NCBI GenBank assembly: GCA_963794995.1
Contig: CAWCFV010000002.1
Coordinates: forward strand, 363,849 to 427,848
From: an uncultured Actinomycetota bacterium
Lineage (GTDB): Bacteria; Actinomycetota; Actinomycetes; JACCUZ01
DNA: 64,000 bases
Direction: 5' to 3'
Of this stretch, positions 3,062 through 55,691 are shown one piece after another; within the stretch, counting starts at the first letter, position 1, and every line of letters begins with the position of its first letter. Position numbers and translations under genes: made by a program. The notes below the pieces were generated by a model that saw nothing but the letters and a program-made list of their open reading frames with translations, ran no database searches and was not told the DNA's origin.

Positions 3062-3230
3062 TCCGCCGGGGTCGTCGACCGCACACCGGCAGCCGGCCGG
3101 CGTACGGTCCCCCTCTGTCGCGGGTGCTCCAGAGCTGCCTCGACCGCGTGGTCCTGGGTGCCTGAGAGGTTCCGGGGAGGTTGCCCCTTCGGCGCCGCAC
3201 CGAGTGGCTGGTGCGGTCTCTCCCACGCGG
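3062..3230 (-). promoter_or_regulatory. Glycine riboswitch in the gcvP 5' leader (aptamer 1 clear; second aptamer degenerate or ghost)
   Basis: Minus-strand RNA reads GGGAGAGACCGCACC..GGCGCCGAAGGGGCAACCUCCCC..CUCUCAGGCA, followed by CUCUGGAGCACC... This matches the conserved glycine-aptamer motifs GGAGAG and CCGAAGGGGCAA and the P1 closing CUCUCAGG. It sits immediately 5' of gcvP. Confidence 0.7.
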
Positions 3231-3266
3231 GTTCGTGAGCAGGCTCACCCTACCCCGGGGCGGGCC

Positions 3267-4086: not shown

Positions 4087-4587
4087 TCAGCTGGCCGGGG
4101 GCTCCTGCGGGGCGGGGCCCTCGAAGTCCTCGGGAGAGATCTGGTCGAGGAACTCGCGGAACTTCTCCACCTCGTCCTCCTGCTCGTCCGGGATGCTGAT
4201 GCCGGCCTCGGCGAGCACCTCGTCGGAGCCGAAGATGGGGGTGGCGGTGCGCAGCGCGACCGCGATGGCGTCGGACGGGCGGGCGCTGACCTCCATCCCG
4301 GAGGCGAAGACCATCTCGGCGTAGAAGACGCCGTCGCGCAGCGCCGTGATCCGCACCTGCGTGAGCTGCTGGCCGGCGGCCTCGAGCAGGTCGCGGATCA
4401 GGTCGTGGGTGAGCGGGCGCGGCGGGACCACACCCTGCTGGGCGAACGCGATCGCGGTGGCCTCGCCGGCGCCGATCCAGATCGGCAGGTAGCGCTCGCC
4501 GCCGGACTCCTTGAGCAGGACGATCGGCTGGTTCGACGGCATCTCGACCCGCACCCCTACGACGTCCAGCTCGTTCACGTCGCCCAC
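4087..4587 (-). CDS. Bifunctional nuclease family protein (DUF151; Rv1829 homolog)
   Basis: 166 aa, MGDVNELDVVGVRVEMPSNQPIVLLKE..., typical of the DUF151/BFN family. Conserved neighbour of the two MerR genes. Confidence 0.8.
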   Translation of the reverse strand: MGDVNELDVVGVRVEMPSNQPIVLLKESGGERYLPIWIGAGEATAIAFAQQGVVPPRPLTHDLIRDLLEAAGQQLTQVRITALRDGVFYAEMVFASGMEVSARPSDAIAVALRTATPIFGSDEVLAEAGISIPDEQEDEVEKFREFLDQISPEDFEGPAPQEPPAS

Positions 4588-11841: not shown

Positions 11842-11914
11842 GGGCAGGTCCCCTCTCCCCTGGGCCGGGTCCGCGGCCCACGTCGTCCGAGCCTAGTCGG
11901 ACCGTCAGACCCGC

Positions 11915-11984
11915 TCGTTTGCGACCTGAGCCCCCGACACGCCGGGGTATCCCCCGGCGTGTCGGGGAGCCAGGTCGCAAACGA
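11915..11984. repeat. 70-bp nested-palindrome repeat element, copy 1 (MITE/REP-like)
   Basis: Outer inverted repeat TCGTTTGCGACCTG...CAGGTCGCAAACGA flanks an inner perfect 13-bp hairpin CGACACGCCGGGG-tatc-CCCCGGCGTGTCG. A second copy (about 87% identical) lies at 39239-39308. Confidence 0.7.
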
Positions 11985-12020
11985 TCATCCGTCGAGGAGC
12001 TCGCGCCCGGTGGCGCAGGG

Positions 12021-13931
12021 TCAGCGGACGCGCCGGCCGGTCTCGGCGGTGGAGTAGCCGCCCAGCGCCTCGACCGAGGCCCGGAAGGCCGGGTCGTCCA
12101 GGAGTGCGAGCAGCGGGTCGAGGACGCCGGAGCCCAGCGTCTCGGGCGTCGTCACCAGGTCGTACGGCTCCTCGGCCACCGGCACGAAGTCCAGCCCGAA
12201 GGCTGCGGCCGCCGCCCGGATGCCGAGGCCGGTGTCGACCCGTCCCGCTGCGACGGCCGCGGCCACCGCGAGGTGGGTGCTCTCCTCGCGGCCGTAGCCG
12301 GTGACGTCGGCCGTGGCGACACCGAGGCGGGACAGCTCGTGGTCGAGCAGCACCCGGGTGCCGGCACCGCGCTGGCGGTTGACGTAGCGCAGGCCGTCGC
12401 GGGCCAGGTCGGTGACGCCGCTGAGGCCGAGCGGGTTCCCGGGCGCGACGATCAGCCCCTGCTGCCGGTGCACCAGCCGGACCACCGCCCCCTTCCCCTC
12501 GCCGAGGACGCGGTCCAGGTACGGCAGCGTGTACGCACCGGTCGCGGGGTCGAGCAGGTGCGAGCCGGCGACATGGCACAGCCCGTCGCGCACGGCGGCC
12601 AGCCCGCCGAGCGAGCCCACGTTGGACGACACCAGGGTCAGGCCCGGGTCACGTTCGCGCAGCGCGGACGCCGCGAGGTCCAGGACGAGGTCGTGCGACC
12701 CGATCGCGACGATGCTGCGGGAGACCTCGTCGAGGCCACGCAGCAGCTCGACCTCGACCTGCTCCCCCGCGTGGTGCCCCTCGAGCCCGGCCGGGACGAC
12801 GAGCAGGCCGTCCGCGCGCACGAGGGACGTGAGCACCCCGGCGCCGCGGGGCAGCGGGGTCGCCACGACCTGGCCGCCGACCACGCCGAGGCGGACGCGG
12901 ACCCAGTCGTCCGAGCCCGCCTGCGAGGCGAGCTTGCGGGCCAGCCGGGCGGTGGTGGTCGGGCGGCGGACGGGAGCCGCCCCCTCGAGCCCCGCCAGCA
13001 GCGGCGCGGCGAAGATGTCGAACGTCAGCGCCGCCGACACGGGGAAGCCGGGCGCACCCAGCACCGGGGTCGCGTCGACCACCCCGAGCACGACCGGATG
13101 GCCCGGCCGGACGGCGACGCCGTGGACGGCGAGGACCCCCTCGTCGGCCACCACCTGCGCCGTCCAGTCGTCACGCCCCGCGCTGGACCCCGCGAGCACG
13201 ATCACCAGGTCGCTGACGGCGGCCGCGTCGTGCACCGCGGCGGCGAGGAGGGCGGGCCGGTCCGGCACGACCGCCGTGACGGTCGCCGCCACGCCGAGCT
13301 GCCGGGCCTGCGCGGACAGCATCAGCGAGTTGGTCTCCGGGATCTCGCCGGCGCCGAGCGGCTCCCCCACGGCGCGGATCTCGTCGCCGGTGGGGATCAC
13401 CGTGATCCGGGGCGTCCGGCGCACGAGCAGCTCGGTGAGCCCGGCCGCCGCAGCCGCCGCCAGGTCGTAGGGCCGCAGACGGTGACCGGACGGCAGCAGC
13501 AGCTCGGTCGCCGCGACGTCCTCGCCGACGTGGCGCACATGGGTCCACGGTGCGACGGCCGCGCGCAGCTCGGCACCGGCCGGTGAGTGGTGCACGTGCT
13601 CGCGCATGACGACCGCGTCGCGACCGGCCGGCACCGGGTCGCCCGTGTCCACGACGTCGAACTGGCCCGGGTGCAGGACCACCGGGGTGCTCTCGGCGGC
13701 GCCGTACGTGTCGGTCGCGCGCACGGCGATGCCGTCCATGGCCGCCGCGTCGTAGTCGGGCGAGGACCGCCGGGCCCATACCGGCTCGGCGGTGACGCGC
13801 CCGAGGGCCACGCCGACCGGGACCGTCACGGCCTCGACCCGGTCGGGGCAGCCGGCACCTTGACAGGCGTGACGCCACGCAGCGGTCGCCTCGGCCGCCG
13901 GCACGTCGTGGACGAACGGGCTCTCGCTCAC
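12021..13931 (-). CDS. moeA: Molybdopterin molybdotransferase MoeA fused to a C-terminal PBP-like (molybdate/tungstate-binding-like) domain
   Basis: The MoeA domains start at VSESPFVHDVPAAEATAAW.. and include the GDE/GAG regions. A C-terminal domain of about 230 aa (..SIVAIGSHDLVLDLAASA..HLLDPATGAYTLPYL..) resembles the PBP_like domain found on MoeA and ModE proteins. GTG start forms a GTGA overlap with the upstream moeA stop. Confidence 0.8.
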   Translation of the reverse strand: MSESPFVHDVPAAEATAAWRHACQGAGCPDRVEAVTVPVGVALGRVTAEPVWARRSSPDYDAAAMDGIAVRATDTYGAAESTPVVLHPGQFDVVDTGDPVPAGRDAVVMREHVHHSPAGAELRAAVAPWTHVRHVGEDVAATELLLPSGHRLRPYDLAAAAAAGLTELLVRRTPRITVIPTGDEIRAVGEPLGAGEIPETNSLMLSAQARQLGVAATVTAVVPDRPALLAAAVHDAAAVSDLVIVLAGSSAGRDDWTAQVVADEGVLAVHGVAVRPGHPVVLGVVDATPVLGAPGFPVSAALTFDIFAAPLLAGLEGAAPVRRPTTTARLARKLASQAGSDDWVRVRLGVVGGQVVATPLPRGAGVLTSLVRADGLLVVPAGLEGHHAGEQVEVELLRGLDEVSRSIVAIGSHDLVLDLAASALRERDPGLTLVSSNVGSLGGLAAVRDGLCHVAGSHLLDPATGAYTLPYLDRVLGEGKGAVVRLVHRQQGLIVAPGNPLGLSGVTDLARDGLRYVNRQRGAGTRVLLDHELSRLGVATADVTGYGREESTHLAVAAAVAAGRVDTGLGIRAAAAAFGLDFVPVAEEPYDLVTTPETLGSGVLDPLLALLDDPAFRASVEALGGYSTAETGRRVR

Positions 13932-15184
13932 CGGTACAGCGTGACGTCGACGTCGGCGCCGGCCGGCAGCCCGGTGGCGTCCTCGGCCACGGAGATCCAC
14001 CCGTCCGCCGCGGTGAGCACCGACAGCAGCGCCGAGGCGCCGAACAGCGGTGTCGCGGTGTCGCCTTCGCGGGCGCGCACCAGGCGGACCTGGACGATGT
14101 CGCGCCGACCTGTCTGCGACGCCACCTGGCGGTCGAGCCGGGCTCGCACGACCGGCTCGGGCGGGGGCCGGGTGACACCGGCGAGCCGGCGCACCAGCGG
14201 CACGCCGACGAGCCGGAACACCACCAGGGCCGAGAGCGGGTTGCCGGGTAGCCCCACCACCGGCACTCCCCCGCAGTCGGCGAGAAGCGTGGGCTTGCCC
14301 GGTCGGACGGCCAGGCCGTGGCACAGGATCCCGGGCGGGCCGAGCCTGGACACGGCGTCGGCGGTCTCGTCGCGGGCCCCGACCGAGGAGCCTGCGGAGA
14401 CCACCACCACGTCGCAGCCGGCAACCGCCTCCCGCAGCACCGACTCCAGCGTCGTCGCGTCGTCGGGCACGATCCCGAGCAGCACCGGCTCGCCACCCGC
14501 CTCCCGGACGATCCCCGCGAGCGCCGACGCCGTGGCGTCGCGCACCTGGCCGGGACGCAGCACCGGGGTCCCCGGCGGGACCACCTCGTCCCCGGTGGAC
14601 AGCACCCCGACGCGCGGCCGCCGGTGGACCGCCACCTCGACGACCCCGGCGGCTGCCAGCAGGCCGAGGTCCTGCGCCCGGAGGGGTCGCCCGGAGGGGA
14701 CCAGCACCGACCCGGCGGCGACGTCCTCGTCGGCCCGGACCGTGCCGTCACCAGGAGCGGCCGGGCGGGTCACCTCGACCGAGCCCGGCATCGTCTGCTG
14801 GGTGTGCTCCACCATCACGACGGCGTCCGCACCGTCGGGCAGGACCGCCCCGGTCGGTACGGCGACCGCGGCTCCGCTGCGGACCGCGACCTCCGGGGGC
14901 CGGCCCATCGCCACGGCCCCCACCAGCTCGAGGTACGACGGCATGGCCTCCGTGGCCCCGAAGGTGTCGGCGGCCCGGACGGCGAACCCGTCGACGGTCG
15001 ACCGGGCGAAACCGGGCAGCGGTCGCGTGGCGGTGACCACAGCAGCCGGGGTCCGGCCGAGCAACGCGTCGAGGCCGACAGGCTCGGCCCCGGTCGGGGC
15101 GAGGTCCGTGAGCAGCGCGAGGGCGGCATCCACCGTGACCGTCGTGAAGAACTCGCGCCCCACGGCGCGGGCAGGAGGAGGCAC
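13928..15184 (-). CDS. moeA: Molybdopterin molybdotransferase MoeA (stand-alone paralog)
   Basis: 418 aa with classical MoeA architecture (..VAEDATGLPAGADVDVTLYR C-terminus). Alternative GTG start 3 nt downstream of the fdsGB stop. Confidence 0.85.
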   Translation of the reverse strand: MPPPARAVGREFFTTVTVDAALALLTDLAPTGAEPVGLDALLGRTPAAVVTATRPLPGFARSTVDGFAVRAADTFGATEAMPSYLELVGAVAMGRPPEVAVRSGAAVAVPTGAVLPDGADAVVMVEHTQQTMPGSVEVTRPAAPGDGTVRADEDVAAGSVLVPSGRPLRAQDLGLLAAAGVVEVAVHRRPRVGVLSTGDEVVPPGTPVLRPGQVRDATASALAGIVREAGGEPVLLGIVPDDATTLESVLREAVAGCDVVVVSAGSSVGARDETADAVSRLGPPGILCHGLAVRPGKPTLLADCGGVPVVGLPGNPLSALVVFRLVGVPLVRRLAGVTRPPPEPVVRARLDRQVASQTGRRDIVQVRLVRAREGDTATPLFGASALLSVLTAADGWISVAEDATGLPAGADVDVTLYR

Positions 15185-22527: not shown

Positions 22528-22872
22528 CGCCTCGTCGTCCTGCGCGCGCTCCACCTGCCGATCGTAGGCACGTGCTCCCGTGCCCGTGTGACCGCGTCAC
22601 GGTCCGTGGCCGTCCTCTCACGGTGGGGCCGCCGGCGTCCTCTGGTCGGGTGGTCGTCGTCGGTTGTGGCAGCGACGCGCCACGCGCGGTCGTAGGTTCG
22701 CGGGGATCAGGACGCAGAGATCCGAGCCGTCCTCACCGGCCTCCTCGGAGGCACGGAGAGACGCGGTCGCCTAGACGGCTCGGGGAGCGAATGGCGAGAC
22801 CGACCCAGGAGACAGCCGCTGCCGGCGGCGCGAGGGGTGGGGTGACCGATGGCGTTCCCGAGGTCCACGACG

Positions 22873-23854
22873 ATGCGACGACTCGTCTGCACGGCAGGCG
22901 GCGTGCTGCTGGTGGCGGTGAGCGTCACGGCAACGACGCCCGCCACGGCGGCCGACCACGACAACCAGGCCTCCGACCGCGGCGCGGCGCAGCGAGCCGA
23001 TGCGCCGGGGCAGGTCAAGAAGCAGGACGCAGCACCGACGCCCGCGGCCGGGACGACCGGCTCCTCGCAGCCGGCGCCGACGTCCGGCGCCGCACCTGCA
23101 GGGCCCGCCACCACGGCGGCCGCGACCGCGACGGTGGGAGCCGACAGCCGTTCCGGCGCCCGCGGCGGCACCTCGGGAACCGTCGACCAGCCGCAGCCGC
23201 TGTCGACCGCCGACCGGAACCCCGGTGGGGCGAACGGTCAGTGCCCGGGGGGTGCGTACTGCTCCACGCGCAGCGGCCTGCCCTCGGGCAACGGCAACGG
23301 CAAGGGCAACGCGGTGGGCAAGCCGTGCGCCGGCTGCGTCGGCAAGGCGGACAACAAGAACCCGCCCGGTCAGCGCCCCGACGGGAGCGACCACAACAAG
23401 GGCTACGAGTGCGACGGCAACCACGGCATCGGCCGGACCAACCCGGCGCACACCGGATGTGCACGCACCACCCCGCCGCCGGTGACACCGCCGCCCGGTG
23501 ACCCCGCCCCCGGTGACACCGCCGCCCGTGACACCGCCGCCGGTGACCCCGCCGCCGGTGACCCCGCCCGTCACCCCGCCCTCGGTGACTCCCCCGCCGG
23601 TGACCCCGACCCCGGTCGCCCCCGAGTGCGTGCCGGCTGCCGGCCAGGACGCGGACTGCGTCGCGGTCGAGGGCGAGAAGAACGGTCCCGGGCGCGACCG
23701 GCCGACGAGCACGCCGCCGGCCGCGCCGGTCCGGGTCCTCGCGCAGACCGGGGGGAACGGCGTCCCCGGCCTCGTGACGATGGCCCTGCTCAGCGTCCTG
23801 GCCGGGTGCCTGCTCCTCGCCGCGGCCGCGCACGGCCGACCGGGGCGCCGCTGA
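22873..23854 (+). CDS. Secreted, LAXTG-anchored surface protein with a Cys-containing domain and (PPVTP)n repeats; frameshifted inside the repeat array
   Basis: Signal peptide MRRLVCTAGGVLLVAVSVTATTPATAADH. Mature Cys-rich region (GQCPGGAYCS, GKPCAGCVGK, GYECDGNHGIGRTNPAHTGC), then about 9 PPVTP 15-nt repeats. C-terminal sorting signal LAQTG plus a hydrophobic segment plus RPGRR. The reading frame switches by +1 at about 23494-23500, where one repeat unit carries an extra C. Confidence 0.6.
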
Positions 23855-31430: not shown

Positions 31431-31506
<76 letters not shown>

Positions 31507-37488: not shown

Positions 37489-37517
37489 CGGGCACCGCGA
37501 CGTCGCCGACGCCCGGC

Positions 37518-37668
37518 GTGCTGCCTCCCATCCGGACTGTCACCGTCGGTCCCGGAGTTCCACCGGGTCAACCGGCCGGGCGTCCCACGTGGCTCGTGGG
37601 CTGCTCGGACGCGGGTCGCGGACTGTCACCGCCGGTTCGGAGTTGCACCGACCCCGGAGCACGCGTAC
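37518..37668 (-). promoter_or_regulatory. FMN riboswitch (RFN element) in the ribD leader
   Basis: Minus-strand RNA has the two duplicated half-motifs GGUGCAACUCCGAACCGGCGGUGACAGUCC and GGUGGAACUCCGGGACCGACGGUGACAGUCCGGAUGGGAGG. The P1 helix GUGCUCC...GGGAGGCAGCAC closes them. It sits immediately 5' of the rib operon. Confidence 0.75.
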
Positions 37669-39222: not shown

Positions 39223-39238
39223 CCCCCGCCCGACCCCG

Positions 39239-39308
39239 TCGTTTGCGACATCCGTCACCGACACGCCGGGGCACTACCCGGCGTGTCGGGGAACCAGGTC
39301 GCAAACGA
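39239..39308. repeat. 70-bp nested-palindrome repeat element, copy 2
   Basis: TCGTTTGCGACatc..CGACACGCCGGGg-cacta-CCCGGCGTGTCG..CAGGTCGCAAACGA. Same architecture as copy 1 at 11915-11984; both are followed by TCATC. Confidence 0.7.
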
Positions 39309-39322
39309 TCATCAAGGGACGG

Positions 39323-40062: not shown

Positions 40063-40153
40063 GCTCAGCTGCGCCGCAGCAGTCCCGCTCAGCTGCGCCG
40101 CAGCAGTCCCGCTCAGCTGCGCCGCAGCAGTCCCGCTCAGCTGCGCCGCAGCA
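40063..40153. repeat. 24-bp direct tandem repeat, 3.8 copies (GCTCAGCTGCGCCGCAGCAGTCCC)
   Basis: Perfect copies at 40063-86, 40087-110 and 40111-134, plus a partial fourth copy. Each unit contains the palindrome GCTGCG-C-CGCAGC. The rsmB stop codon (40137-40139) lies inside the fourth unit. Confidence 0.8.
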
Positions 40154-51510: not shown

Positions 51511-52382
51511 TCAGTGCCCGCCCGGCACCGGGGCGCCGACGGTGCCTGCAGGGACGGTCCCCACGTCGTCCCAGCGGACCCGGTCGCCGGGGAACACCGG
51601 GCCCTCGGTGCACGACCGGACCATCCGGGTCAGCCCGTCGTCACCGACGACGGGCAGCACGCAGGTCATGCAGACCCCGATGCCGCAGGCCATCGACTCC
51701 TCCACCGCGCACTGCGCCGGGACACCCGCGCCGGCCGCCACCTGGCTGACCGCCCGCAGCATCGGCATCGGGCCGCAGGCGTACACGACGTCGGTGCGGG
51801 CGGCGGCCATCACCTGCGGCAGGACGTCGGTGACCCGGCCCCGGGTGCCGGCCGAGCCGTCGTCGGTGGTGACCGCCACCGACGAGGCCATCCGCTTCGC
51901 GTCCAGGACGCCGAAGAGGCGGTCGTCGGACCCGGCCCCGAGCACGAAGTCGACCCGGCAGCCGCGGCCGCGCAGCGCCTCGGCGAGCGCGAACAGCGGC
52001 GCGGCGCCGTAGCCGCCCCCGACCAGGGTGGCACTGGCGGCCTCGCGGGGCAGGCTGAACGGACGCCCGAGCGGCCCGACCACGTCGACCGGCGTGTGCG
52101 GCGGCGCGCCGGCCAGCCAGGCGGTGCCGGCCCCCTTGGTGCCGACGACGATGTCGACGGTGCCGCCGTACACGCCCCGGGCCGAGGTCCGGTAGATCGA
52201 GAAGGCGCGGCGCAGCGTGAGCCCGGTGTCCGGACCGCCCACCGCCACGGCGACGAAGTGGCCGGGCCGGGTGCGCTCCGCCAGGCCGGGGGCGACGAGC
52301 GTGAGGTGGTGGTACGCGCCGACCCGGCGGCTGGTCAGCACCTGCCCGGCCACCTGGAGCGCCCCCTCGGACCGGTGCCCCA

Positions 52383-52383
<1 letters not shown>
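51511..52383 (-). CDS. pyrK: Dihydroorotate dehydrogenase electron-transfer subunit (FAD / 2Fe-2S)
   Basis: 290 aa. FAD/NAD-binding ferredoxin-reductase fold and a C-terminal Cys cluster CAVEESMACGIGVCMTC. The ATG 52381-52383 shares one nucleotide with the carB stop. Confidence 0.85.

Positions 52384-55691
<3,308 letters not shown>

Follow-up and report, generated by a model that had tools for sequence, protein, structure and literature searches.

A palindromic repeat found in two copies in an uncultured actinomycetote genome probably belongs to a new dispersed REP/MITE/REPIN-like family

Small palindromic repeats such as REPs, REPINs, and MITEs affect the stability and termination of transcripts as well as the rearrangement of genomes; most documented examples come from Proteobacteria and a small number of other phyla. 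The roles proposed for REP/BIME elements are stabilization of transcript ends, termination, and effects on supercoiling. Among the best-described systems, REPINs are inverted REP doublets mobilized by RAYT transposases (Bertels & Rainey 2011, PMC3116915; RAREFAN preprint, 10.1101/2022.05.22.493013). Bacterial MITEs are 70–300 bp long, with 15–30-bp TIRs and no coding capacity, and REPs are found mainly downstream of coding regions; the survey that gives these descriptions covered REPs over eight phyla and does not mention Actinobacteria/Actinomycetota (PMC3733652). Here, we describe a palindromic element from that phylum and compare it with these systems.

The whole stretch of DNA that we analyzed, called the window below, is 64,000 nucleotides long, comes from an uncultured Actinomycetota bacterium, and has a G+C content of 74%. 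The original prediction described a nested palindrome of 70 bp in two intergenic copies, and both copies were borne out in position and length (Table 1). They lie in the same orientation on the + strand and match at 60 of 70 core positions (86%), with a similarity that reaches 88 nt when the flanks are included (11902–11989 against 39226–39313, 74 of 88 matching). The TCATC said to follow each copy is present after both. Copy 1 is a nearly perfect palindrome with 33-bp arms that are 91% complementary (inverted repeat I25), and pairing in copy 2 is limited to the 11-bp ends and the 12-bp inner stem. An outer inverted repeat of 14 bp had been claimed for both copies; it was found in copy 1, but in copy 2 only the 11-bp TCGTTTGCGAC / GTCGCAAACGA are complementary. 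The stem of the inner hairpin falls in the 12–13-bp range given for it, with copy 1 at 13 bp and copy 2 at 12 bp. When the conserved 15-mer CCAGGTCGCAAACGA was sought across the window with up to three mismatches, 14 matches were obtained against 2.2 expected, and the exact and one-mismatch matches are the arms of copies 1 and 2.

Table 1. Positions of the element, its parts, empty sites, and other features in the window
Feature	Position	Strand	Evidence or remark
Copy 1, 70-bp core	11915-11984	.	sequence, direct repeat D9, inverted repeat I25
Copy 1 outer boxes	11915-11925 and 11974-11984		
Copy 1 spacers	11926-11932 (CTGAGCC) and 11967-11973 (GAGCCAG)		
Copy 1 inner boxes	11933-11944 and 11955-11966		
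Copy 1 loop region	11945-11954		
Copy 1 with weakly conserved flanks common to copy 2	11902-11989		C-rich left, TCATC right; 88-nt D9
Copy 2, 70-bp core	39239-39308	.	sequence, fold, profile match
Copy 2 outer boxes	39239-39249 and 39298-39308		
Copy 2 spacers	39250-39256 (ATCCGTC) and 39291-39297 (GAACCAG)		
Copy 2 inner boxes	39257-39268 and 39279-39290		
rskA-rpe convergent intergenic spacer, 100 nt	39223-39322		nearly filled by copy 2 and its flanks; ORF ends, Pfam
Empty site: carB stop / pyrK-like start overlap TGATG	52381-52385	-	alignment with L043 and L015; ORFs; Pfam
Candidate second empty site	4089-4109	.	BLAST synteny and alignment; junction unclean, boundaries uncertain
Glycine riboswitch	3139-3235	-	Rfam gathering score, 61.3 bits
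c-di-GMP-II-GAG riboswitch	22701-22814	+	Rfam gathering score, 50.4 bits
tRNA	31433-31506	-	Rfam gathering score
FMN riboswitch	37514-37666	-	Rfam gathering score, 78.5 bits

Open reading frame ends and Pfam matches confirmed the intergenic siting of both copies, beside moeA/PgsA-like genes in one case and anti-sigma/rpe genes in the other. The neighbors of copy 1 are two minus-strand genes, one for a MoeA-PBP fusion protein (stop 12021) and one for a CDP-alcohol phosphatidyltransferase (start 11841). Copy 2 lies between two convergent genes, one for an RskA anti-sigma protein (stop 39222, +; RskA_C) and the other rpe (stop 39323, -; Ribul_P_3_epim). The only open reading frames that cross the element are spurious, and the conserved peptides “PTRRGIPRRVG..PGRKRS”, already suspected of being artifacts, are confined to false long frames that overlap real genes.

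Several other features were observed in the window. The gene upstream of copy 1 (12021–14324, -) encodes MoeA fused to a C-terminal PBP-like domain (PF12727). Beyond rpe, a perfect 24-nt tandem repeat, GCTCAGCTGCGCCGCAGCAGTCCC, in 3.8 copies (40063–40153) fills the rsmB-like/rpe spacer; this looks like a lineage-specific expansion beside the copy 2 gene, because the same spacer is only ~30 nt long in relatives (L105: 1971–2000). At 23477–23635, there is an array with a 15-nt period, CCGCCGGTGACNCCG-like and of at least seven units (repeat family D1), which probably codes a Pro/Thr/Gly-rich repeat.

We then scanned one genome per species for TCGTTTGCGAC-N33-63-GTCGCAAACGA, with exact 11-bp ends. 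The scan yielded at least 103 stretches with at least 111 matches, and at least 108 exact-ended copies fell in 12 related uncultured Actinomycetota genomes (soil MAGs), so the element is not a two-copy pair. All but a few of the listed matches are 68–72 nt long, and nearly all of those listed are in the 12 Actinomycetota MAGs (prefixes CAVVAH, CAWDZK, CAVSCX, CAWARY, DATBDW, and others), with at least 10 copies on single contigs. In L002, L029, and L065, copies stand in tandem or in clusters. Against the family profile, nhmmer returned copy 1 with E = 1.7e-22 and copy 2 with E = 1.2e-21, and the same kind of search over 867 kb of flanking DNA added only four further copies, all degenerate. No unpaired end boxes or half-sites were found in the 867 kb, viral contigs gave no match to the element, and a literature search on the box sequences returned only unrelated primers. 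On balance, the two palindromes are probably members of a new multi-copy, non-coding family of REP/MITE/REPIN-like palindromic repeats. Tens to hundreds of extragenic copies, some of them tandem or clustered, are also a feature of REPINs.

A sharing of the 11-mer TCGTTTGCGAC across phyla was considered and set aside. In locus L039 (2150–3870), from a Chloroflexia MAG (CAWJLE), a palindromic element of at least 150 bp contains TCGTTTGCGAC; this is a different element, and the shared 11-mer may be due to chance. Its left arm is interrupted by an IS that carries a DUF772 transposase gene, and CTGAG is duplicated at the junctions.

Gain and loss of copies could be followed at several loci. The window is syntenic with five fetched loci at 80–88% identity. 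The copy 1 locus is also filled in two relatives (L014 and L054), where moeA and the element are separated by a further mycothiol-S-transferase/DinB gene that is missing from the window. Copy 2 is absent at the orthologous rpe/rskA junction in four relatives (L104–L107), reached through their Rpe homologues; one of these has an extra gene at the junction, and the other three have unrelated spacers of 58–89 nt. The spacers that replace copy 2 show ordinary folding (z about -0.5), and a hairpin is therefore not required at the rpe/rskA junction.

The opposite case was found at the carB/pyrK junction (CPSase and DHODB_Fe-S_bind by Pfam), where L043 and L015 carry a ~102-bp insert with the element exactly at the overlap of the two genes and the window is empty. 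The insert is bounded by an 8-bp direct repeat, CGCTGATG (CATCAGCG on the + strand), at -15 and +17 from the core, so the carB stop and the pyrK start are both restored. A 14-bp direct repeat also surrounds the copy in L049. Target-site duplications, which the original prediction had raised, are thus seen as 8 bp at one clean site, but over all copies, direct repeats of at least 7 nt are not significantly enriched (29 copies against ~18.5 expected), the clear cases being those of 8 and 14 bp. A second empty site at 4089–4109 is probable from synteny and alignment; the equivalent stretch in L002 has ~377 bp that include two tandem copies, one of them degenerate. Other comparisons of filled and empty sites are blurred by intergenic divergence. 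Together with the copy number, the variable site of copy 2 and the one filled/empty site support the reading of the two palindromes as a dispersed, REP-like or mobile element. The original prediction was to fail if the two copies stood alone, at terminators of convergent genes kept in place in relatives, and neither the copy number nor the copy 2 junction bears that out. Differences in presence and absence, and a target-site-like duplication at one clean site, are shared with MITEs such as Correia/NEMIS, RUP, ERIC, and Nezha; unlike in MITEs, duplications are not demonstrable at most copies.

The anatomy of the element was consistent across the family. A unit comprises the 70-bp core flanked at either end by ~15 nt that are loosely conserved, C-rich at the 5ʹ side and G-rich at the 3ʹ side, and the full unit is probably ~100 bp. 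Read from the outside in, an arm consists of the C-rich flank, G(A/C), TCGTTTGCGAC, a 7-nt spacer, (C/A)CCGACACGCCG, and the variable loop, with the same consensus in both arms. The spacer consensus is C-T-n-n-n-T-C, and the loop is 8–10 nt long. Profiled over 106 copies, the flank has 66–73% C at -9 to -14, is enriched in A at -3 to -8, has G at -2 in 91% of copies, and has A or C at -1.

In this anatomy, the element shares traits with each of the described systems and departs from each of them. A hairpin of ~70–100 bp with two inverted conserved arms and a variable loop is REPIN-like, but the arms are not short palindromic REPs: each 33-nt arm is without a palindrome of its own in a core of 68–72 bp, and the outer end of either arm is G(A/C)TCGTTTGCGAC, with no GTAG or CGTC tag. 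Whereas REPs are 20–40 bp long with a terminal tag, the element is two to three times longer and has two distinct boxes per arm. Its size, its inverted-repeat arms, and its non-coding, intergenic position beside genes are like those of the MITEs named above. Unlike MITEs, the whole element is one palindrome, and its best-conserved blocks are internal, with the outermost ~15 nt conserved only in composition. Such internal rather than terminal conservation is unusual for a MITE.

The two arms of a copy nevertheless differ in their spacers. Spacer positions 14–16 are complementary in only 19–40% of copies, and the spacers of one copy’s two arms are identical in none of the 108 copies listed. In 64 copies, the motif NTGGN[TC]C is confined to a single arm; only 1 copy has it on both arms, where 10 would be expected. 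As the spacers never match between arms, the folded hairpin always has a 2–3-nt bubble, and the two arms can be told apart. The simplest cause of this asymmetry would be a founder copy that was itself asymmetric, and selection against perfect long palindromes may add to it. The same preference for heterodimers has been discussed for REP dimers (PMC3733652). Two other accounts of the arms and flanks were rejected. For a copy-specific outer stem, pairing of left and right flanks gave -20.5 kcal/mol within copies and -20.2 kcal/mol between copies (p = 0.30); for a guide-like coupling of spacer and flank, mutual information was at most 0.12 bit and was accounted for by subfamilies.

Two boxes separated by an unpaired spacer also recall the folded single-strand recombination sites of the integron attC type, which are acted on by a tyrosine recombinase. 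The layout is indeed like R-box / unpaired spacer / L-box / variable loop, and the spacer is never fully complementary (0 of 108). We nevertheless hold this origin to be extremely improbable: the element has no GTTRRRY / RYYYAAC core, neither of its boxes is the inverted form of the other, and the copies lie among housekeeping genes and not in cassette arrays, with no integrase found near them. An asymmetric founder copy is, moreover, the simpler explanation of the differing arms.

We next compared sequence constraint along the element. Fourteen groups of copies have both flanks in common across species, with 75–93% flank identity, and like REPINs, the element is retained at orthologous positions across species in a family that is still recognizable. 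Across 20 orthologous pairs in the same orientation, identity rose from 50% in the loop through 59% in the flanks and 73% in the spacers to 94% in the inner boxes; the 100% identity of the outer boxes is an inflated figure, as the scan required exact ends. To control for this bias, a metagenome scan was anchored on the inner boxes alone. Six of its 96 matches belong to the studied family, and eight of 10 complete outer boxes were exact. Because the boxes are near-invariant while the loops are near saturation, and because decayed copies are very few, these sequence comparisons argue for selection on the boxes, with continual renewal of copies as the alternative. The pattern is not that of old insertions in simple neutral decay.

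The same metagenome scan bears on the inner hairpin as a universal core, a notion that we rejected, as the remaining 90 of the 96 matches were unrelated hairpins or other repeat families. By a rough estimate, given how many natural hairpins metagenomes contain, an 11-bp stem is presumably shared about as often as this by chance, and the inner stem is thus not special outside the studied family. One unrelated multi-hairpin family has GGTTTCCCCGGGCGCCCGGGGAAACC beside a central hairpin, CCGACACGCCG-TTGCTGCAA-CGGCGTGTCGG, that has the same inner stem as the studied element. It was seen in soil metagenome contigs, mostly Ga0190274 (L108, L109, L117, L139, L145, L150, L154, L159, L160, L189, and L198).

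The genomic context of the copies was examined with two sets of gene calls. By frame composition, 41 copies are in convergent, 52 in co-directional, and 6 in divergent contexts. The median distance from a stop codon to the core is 32 nt, and 142 of the 207 adjacent gene ends are 3ʹ ends; this siting, mainly downstream of genes, is like that of REP/BIME elements in Enterobacteria and Pseudomonas. With a second, crude gene caller, 51% of element junctions were co-directional, 37% convergent, and 12% divergent, compared with 66%, 16%, and 19%, respectively, for junctions without the element in the same DNA (chi-square p = 7e-6). The copies favor convergent junctions, and divergent ones have fewer than their share. 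In crude calls, the best frame of the adjacent gene enters or crosses the element before its stop in five cases (L004 2200, L026 5322, L077 6236, L081 6623, and L049 7294), and a TGA abutting the core is the stop codon of the gene in L030 and L087.

Gene context was associated neither with the flank allele (GA or GC) nor with the orientation defined by the spacers, and orientation was not associated with local GC skew (p = 0.21). Across the 52 co-directional contexts, the transcribed strand folds better in 25 and worse in 25, giving no strand preference, and G-U pairs show no bias with the direction of transcription. Given the absence of any strand, orientation, flank-allele, or GC-skew association, any function would therefore be independent of orientation. 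An outward Shine-Dalgarno role for the G-rich 3ʹ flank, with the C-rich 5ʹ flank as its mask, was rejected as a general role. The idea fits L043 and L015, where an ATG stands 20 nt after the core, but most downstream starts are at least 50 nt away, and the flank composition is the same beside gene 3ʹ ends.

These patterns of constraint and siting are also what might be seen if the copies were DNA sites bound by a host protein (a nucleoid-associated protein, gyrase as at BIME-type sites, or a recombinase) and kept by selection rather than spread as a selfish transposon, with the boxes as the binding motif. At orthologous loci, conservation extends to the sequence itself as well as the structure (94% in the inner boxes, 50% in the loop); a copy is either whole or missing, with decay seen in few; neither strand nor orientation is biased with respect to transcription; and enrichment falls between convergent genes, where positive supercoils build up. 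As a full account, we consider this unlikely. It must explain the same 70–100-bp architecture at more than 100 unrelated places, and the filled/empty site with its 8-bp duplication, together with the lineage-specific copy 2, indicates insertion. The two views are compatible, as binding sites could be partly nested in the favored reading of a dispersed repeat family, through exaptation after spread.

The folding of the two copies was then assessed. Copy 1 folds at -70.8 kcal/mol on the + strand and -76.5 kcal/mol on the - strand (+ strand z = -11.2), and copy 2 at -58.1 and -53.3 kcal/mol, respectively (+ strand z = -7.3). The four strand versions have z-scores between -4.8 and -11.3, and none of 200 shuffles folded as well. 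A strong hairpin if transcribed is a further likeness to MITEs. Rfam returned no match at gathering score for the two copies; below threshold, the best matches were hairpin models of the miRNA type and mraW, which scored 30 bits where its gathering score is 50. RNAalifold on the family gave invariant pairs with essentially no compensatory change: inner-stem variants are mostly uncompensated, with paired positions either invariant or broken. No sigma-70-like promoter was found. The sRNA that had been suggested as one identity of the element is thus not supported, there being no Rfam match, no covariation, and no preference for the transcribed strand.

A canonical terminator, also suggested, fared no better, as no T-run follows the hairpin and neither copy was called terminator-like. 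In the copies listed, the tails after the family hairpins read TCATC, TCTTC, or GCGNN. The element does resemble intrinsic terminators in being a GC-rich hairpin shortly after stop codons, but it lacks a U-tract, a single sequence is repeated over more than 100 sites, and it is the sequence, not only the structure, that is conserved. We therefore give next to no credence to an ordinary pair of gene-specific terminators, alike by chance and conserved in place. Both copies are downstream of minus-strand genes, as such a pair would be, but with at least 108 copies elsewhere, copy 2 missing in four relatives, and no T-run, the explanation is already refuted.

A structured RNA family would differ in having selection act on the transcript, either as an sRNA or as a cis-acting 3ʹ-UTR element such as a non-canonical bidirectional terminator. 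Very stable hairpins on both strands, the short median distance after stop codons, and the enrichment at convergent junctions would all suit such a family. We judge it very unlikely, since no Rfam family covers the element and only generic hairpin/miRNA models match, well under their thresholds. In addition, there are no compensated pairs, strand folding divides evenly, neither a T-run nor a promoter is present, and the spacers that stand in place of copy 2 in relatives are not unusually structured.

We also searched for a protein that could mobilize the element. No transposase or parent IS with the element’s ends was found in the 867 kb of flanking DNA, a possible point of difference from MITEs. 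Y1/RAYT-like proteins gave no match by tblastn in 1.43 Mb; with approximate query sequences, this is weak evidence, though it may be a difference from REPINs, as is the one insertion with an 8-bp direct repeat. To our knowledge, IS200/IS605-type enzymes make no such direct repeats. Paralogue clustering of neighboring open reading frames found no multi-copy protein or transposase family near the copies. Genes lying between two copies were considered as mobilizing enzymes and rejected, one being a luciferase-like monooxygenase and another an AbiEi-like protein conserved at a single locus. The latter is a 350-aa gene tightly placed between two copies in L009 (5680–6895; also L038 904–2155 and L068), with gaps of 15 nt and 11 nt. 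Homologues of the protein carry PF09407 (AbiEi), the arrangement is found at one and the same locus in three species, and a homologue at 79% identity is encoded on the source contig of the window. The bracketing is probably a coincidence, though this is the only gene found so tightly bracketed.

Taking the two palindromes as members of a dispersed repeat family, we propose that the element spreads by transposition by means of a box-recognizing protein whose gene lies elsewhere in the genome. A DDE-type mechanism, cut-and-paste or copy-in, would be favored over a hairpin-guided single-strand mechanism, because the only clean comparison of filled and empty sites shows an 8-bp target duplication. 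Insertions would survive mainly downstream of genes, where no promoter is disrupted. Once in place, the element would give transcripts of either strand a very stable 3ʹ hairpin, and the DNA could form a cruciform. It may act as a bidirectional barrier or as a stabilizer of transcript ends in the manner of REPs and MITEs, and by likeness to these elements, a role as a transcript-end hairpin is plausible. The non-pairing spacer would keep the palindrome imperfect and may protect it against palindrome-directed deletion.

A bolder version of this reading would make the element a REPIN-like “persistent replicator”, vertically inherited and the first described in Actinomycetota, whose boxes and obligatory unpaired spacer are read by a dedicated enzyme that is not an obvious RAYT; the host may have co-opted the element as a bidirectional gene-end module acting on transcript ends or supercoiling. 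We offer this version tentatively and regard it as doubtful.

Collectively, we class the element as a new family within a known kind of repeat, from a phylum with few documented examples. Its clear anatomy, its retention at orthologous loci, and boxes that are 94–100% identical against ~50% for their neighbors make the element a good handle for finding the protein that recognizes it. For annotation, the element matters in two ways, as it creates spurious conserved open reading frames and can part translationally coupled genes, for example at the carB/pyrK junction. The family is also a ready marker for insertion polymorphism in this uncultured soil lineage.
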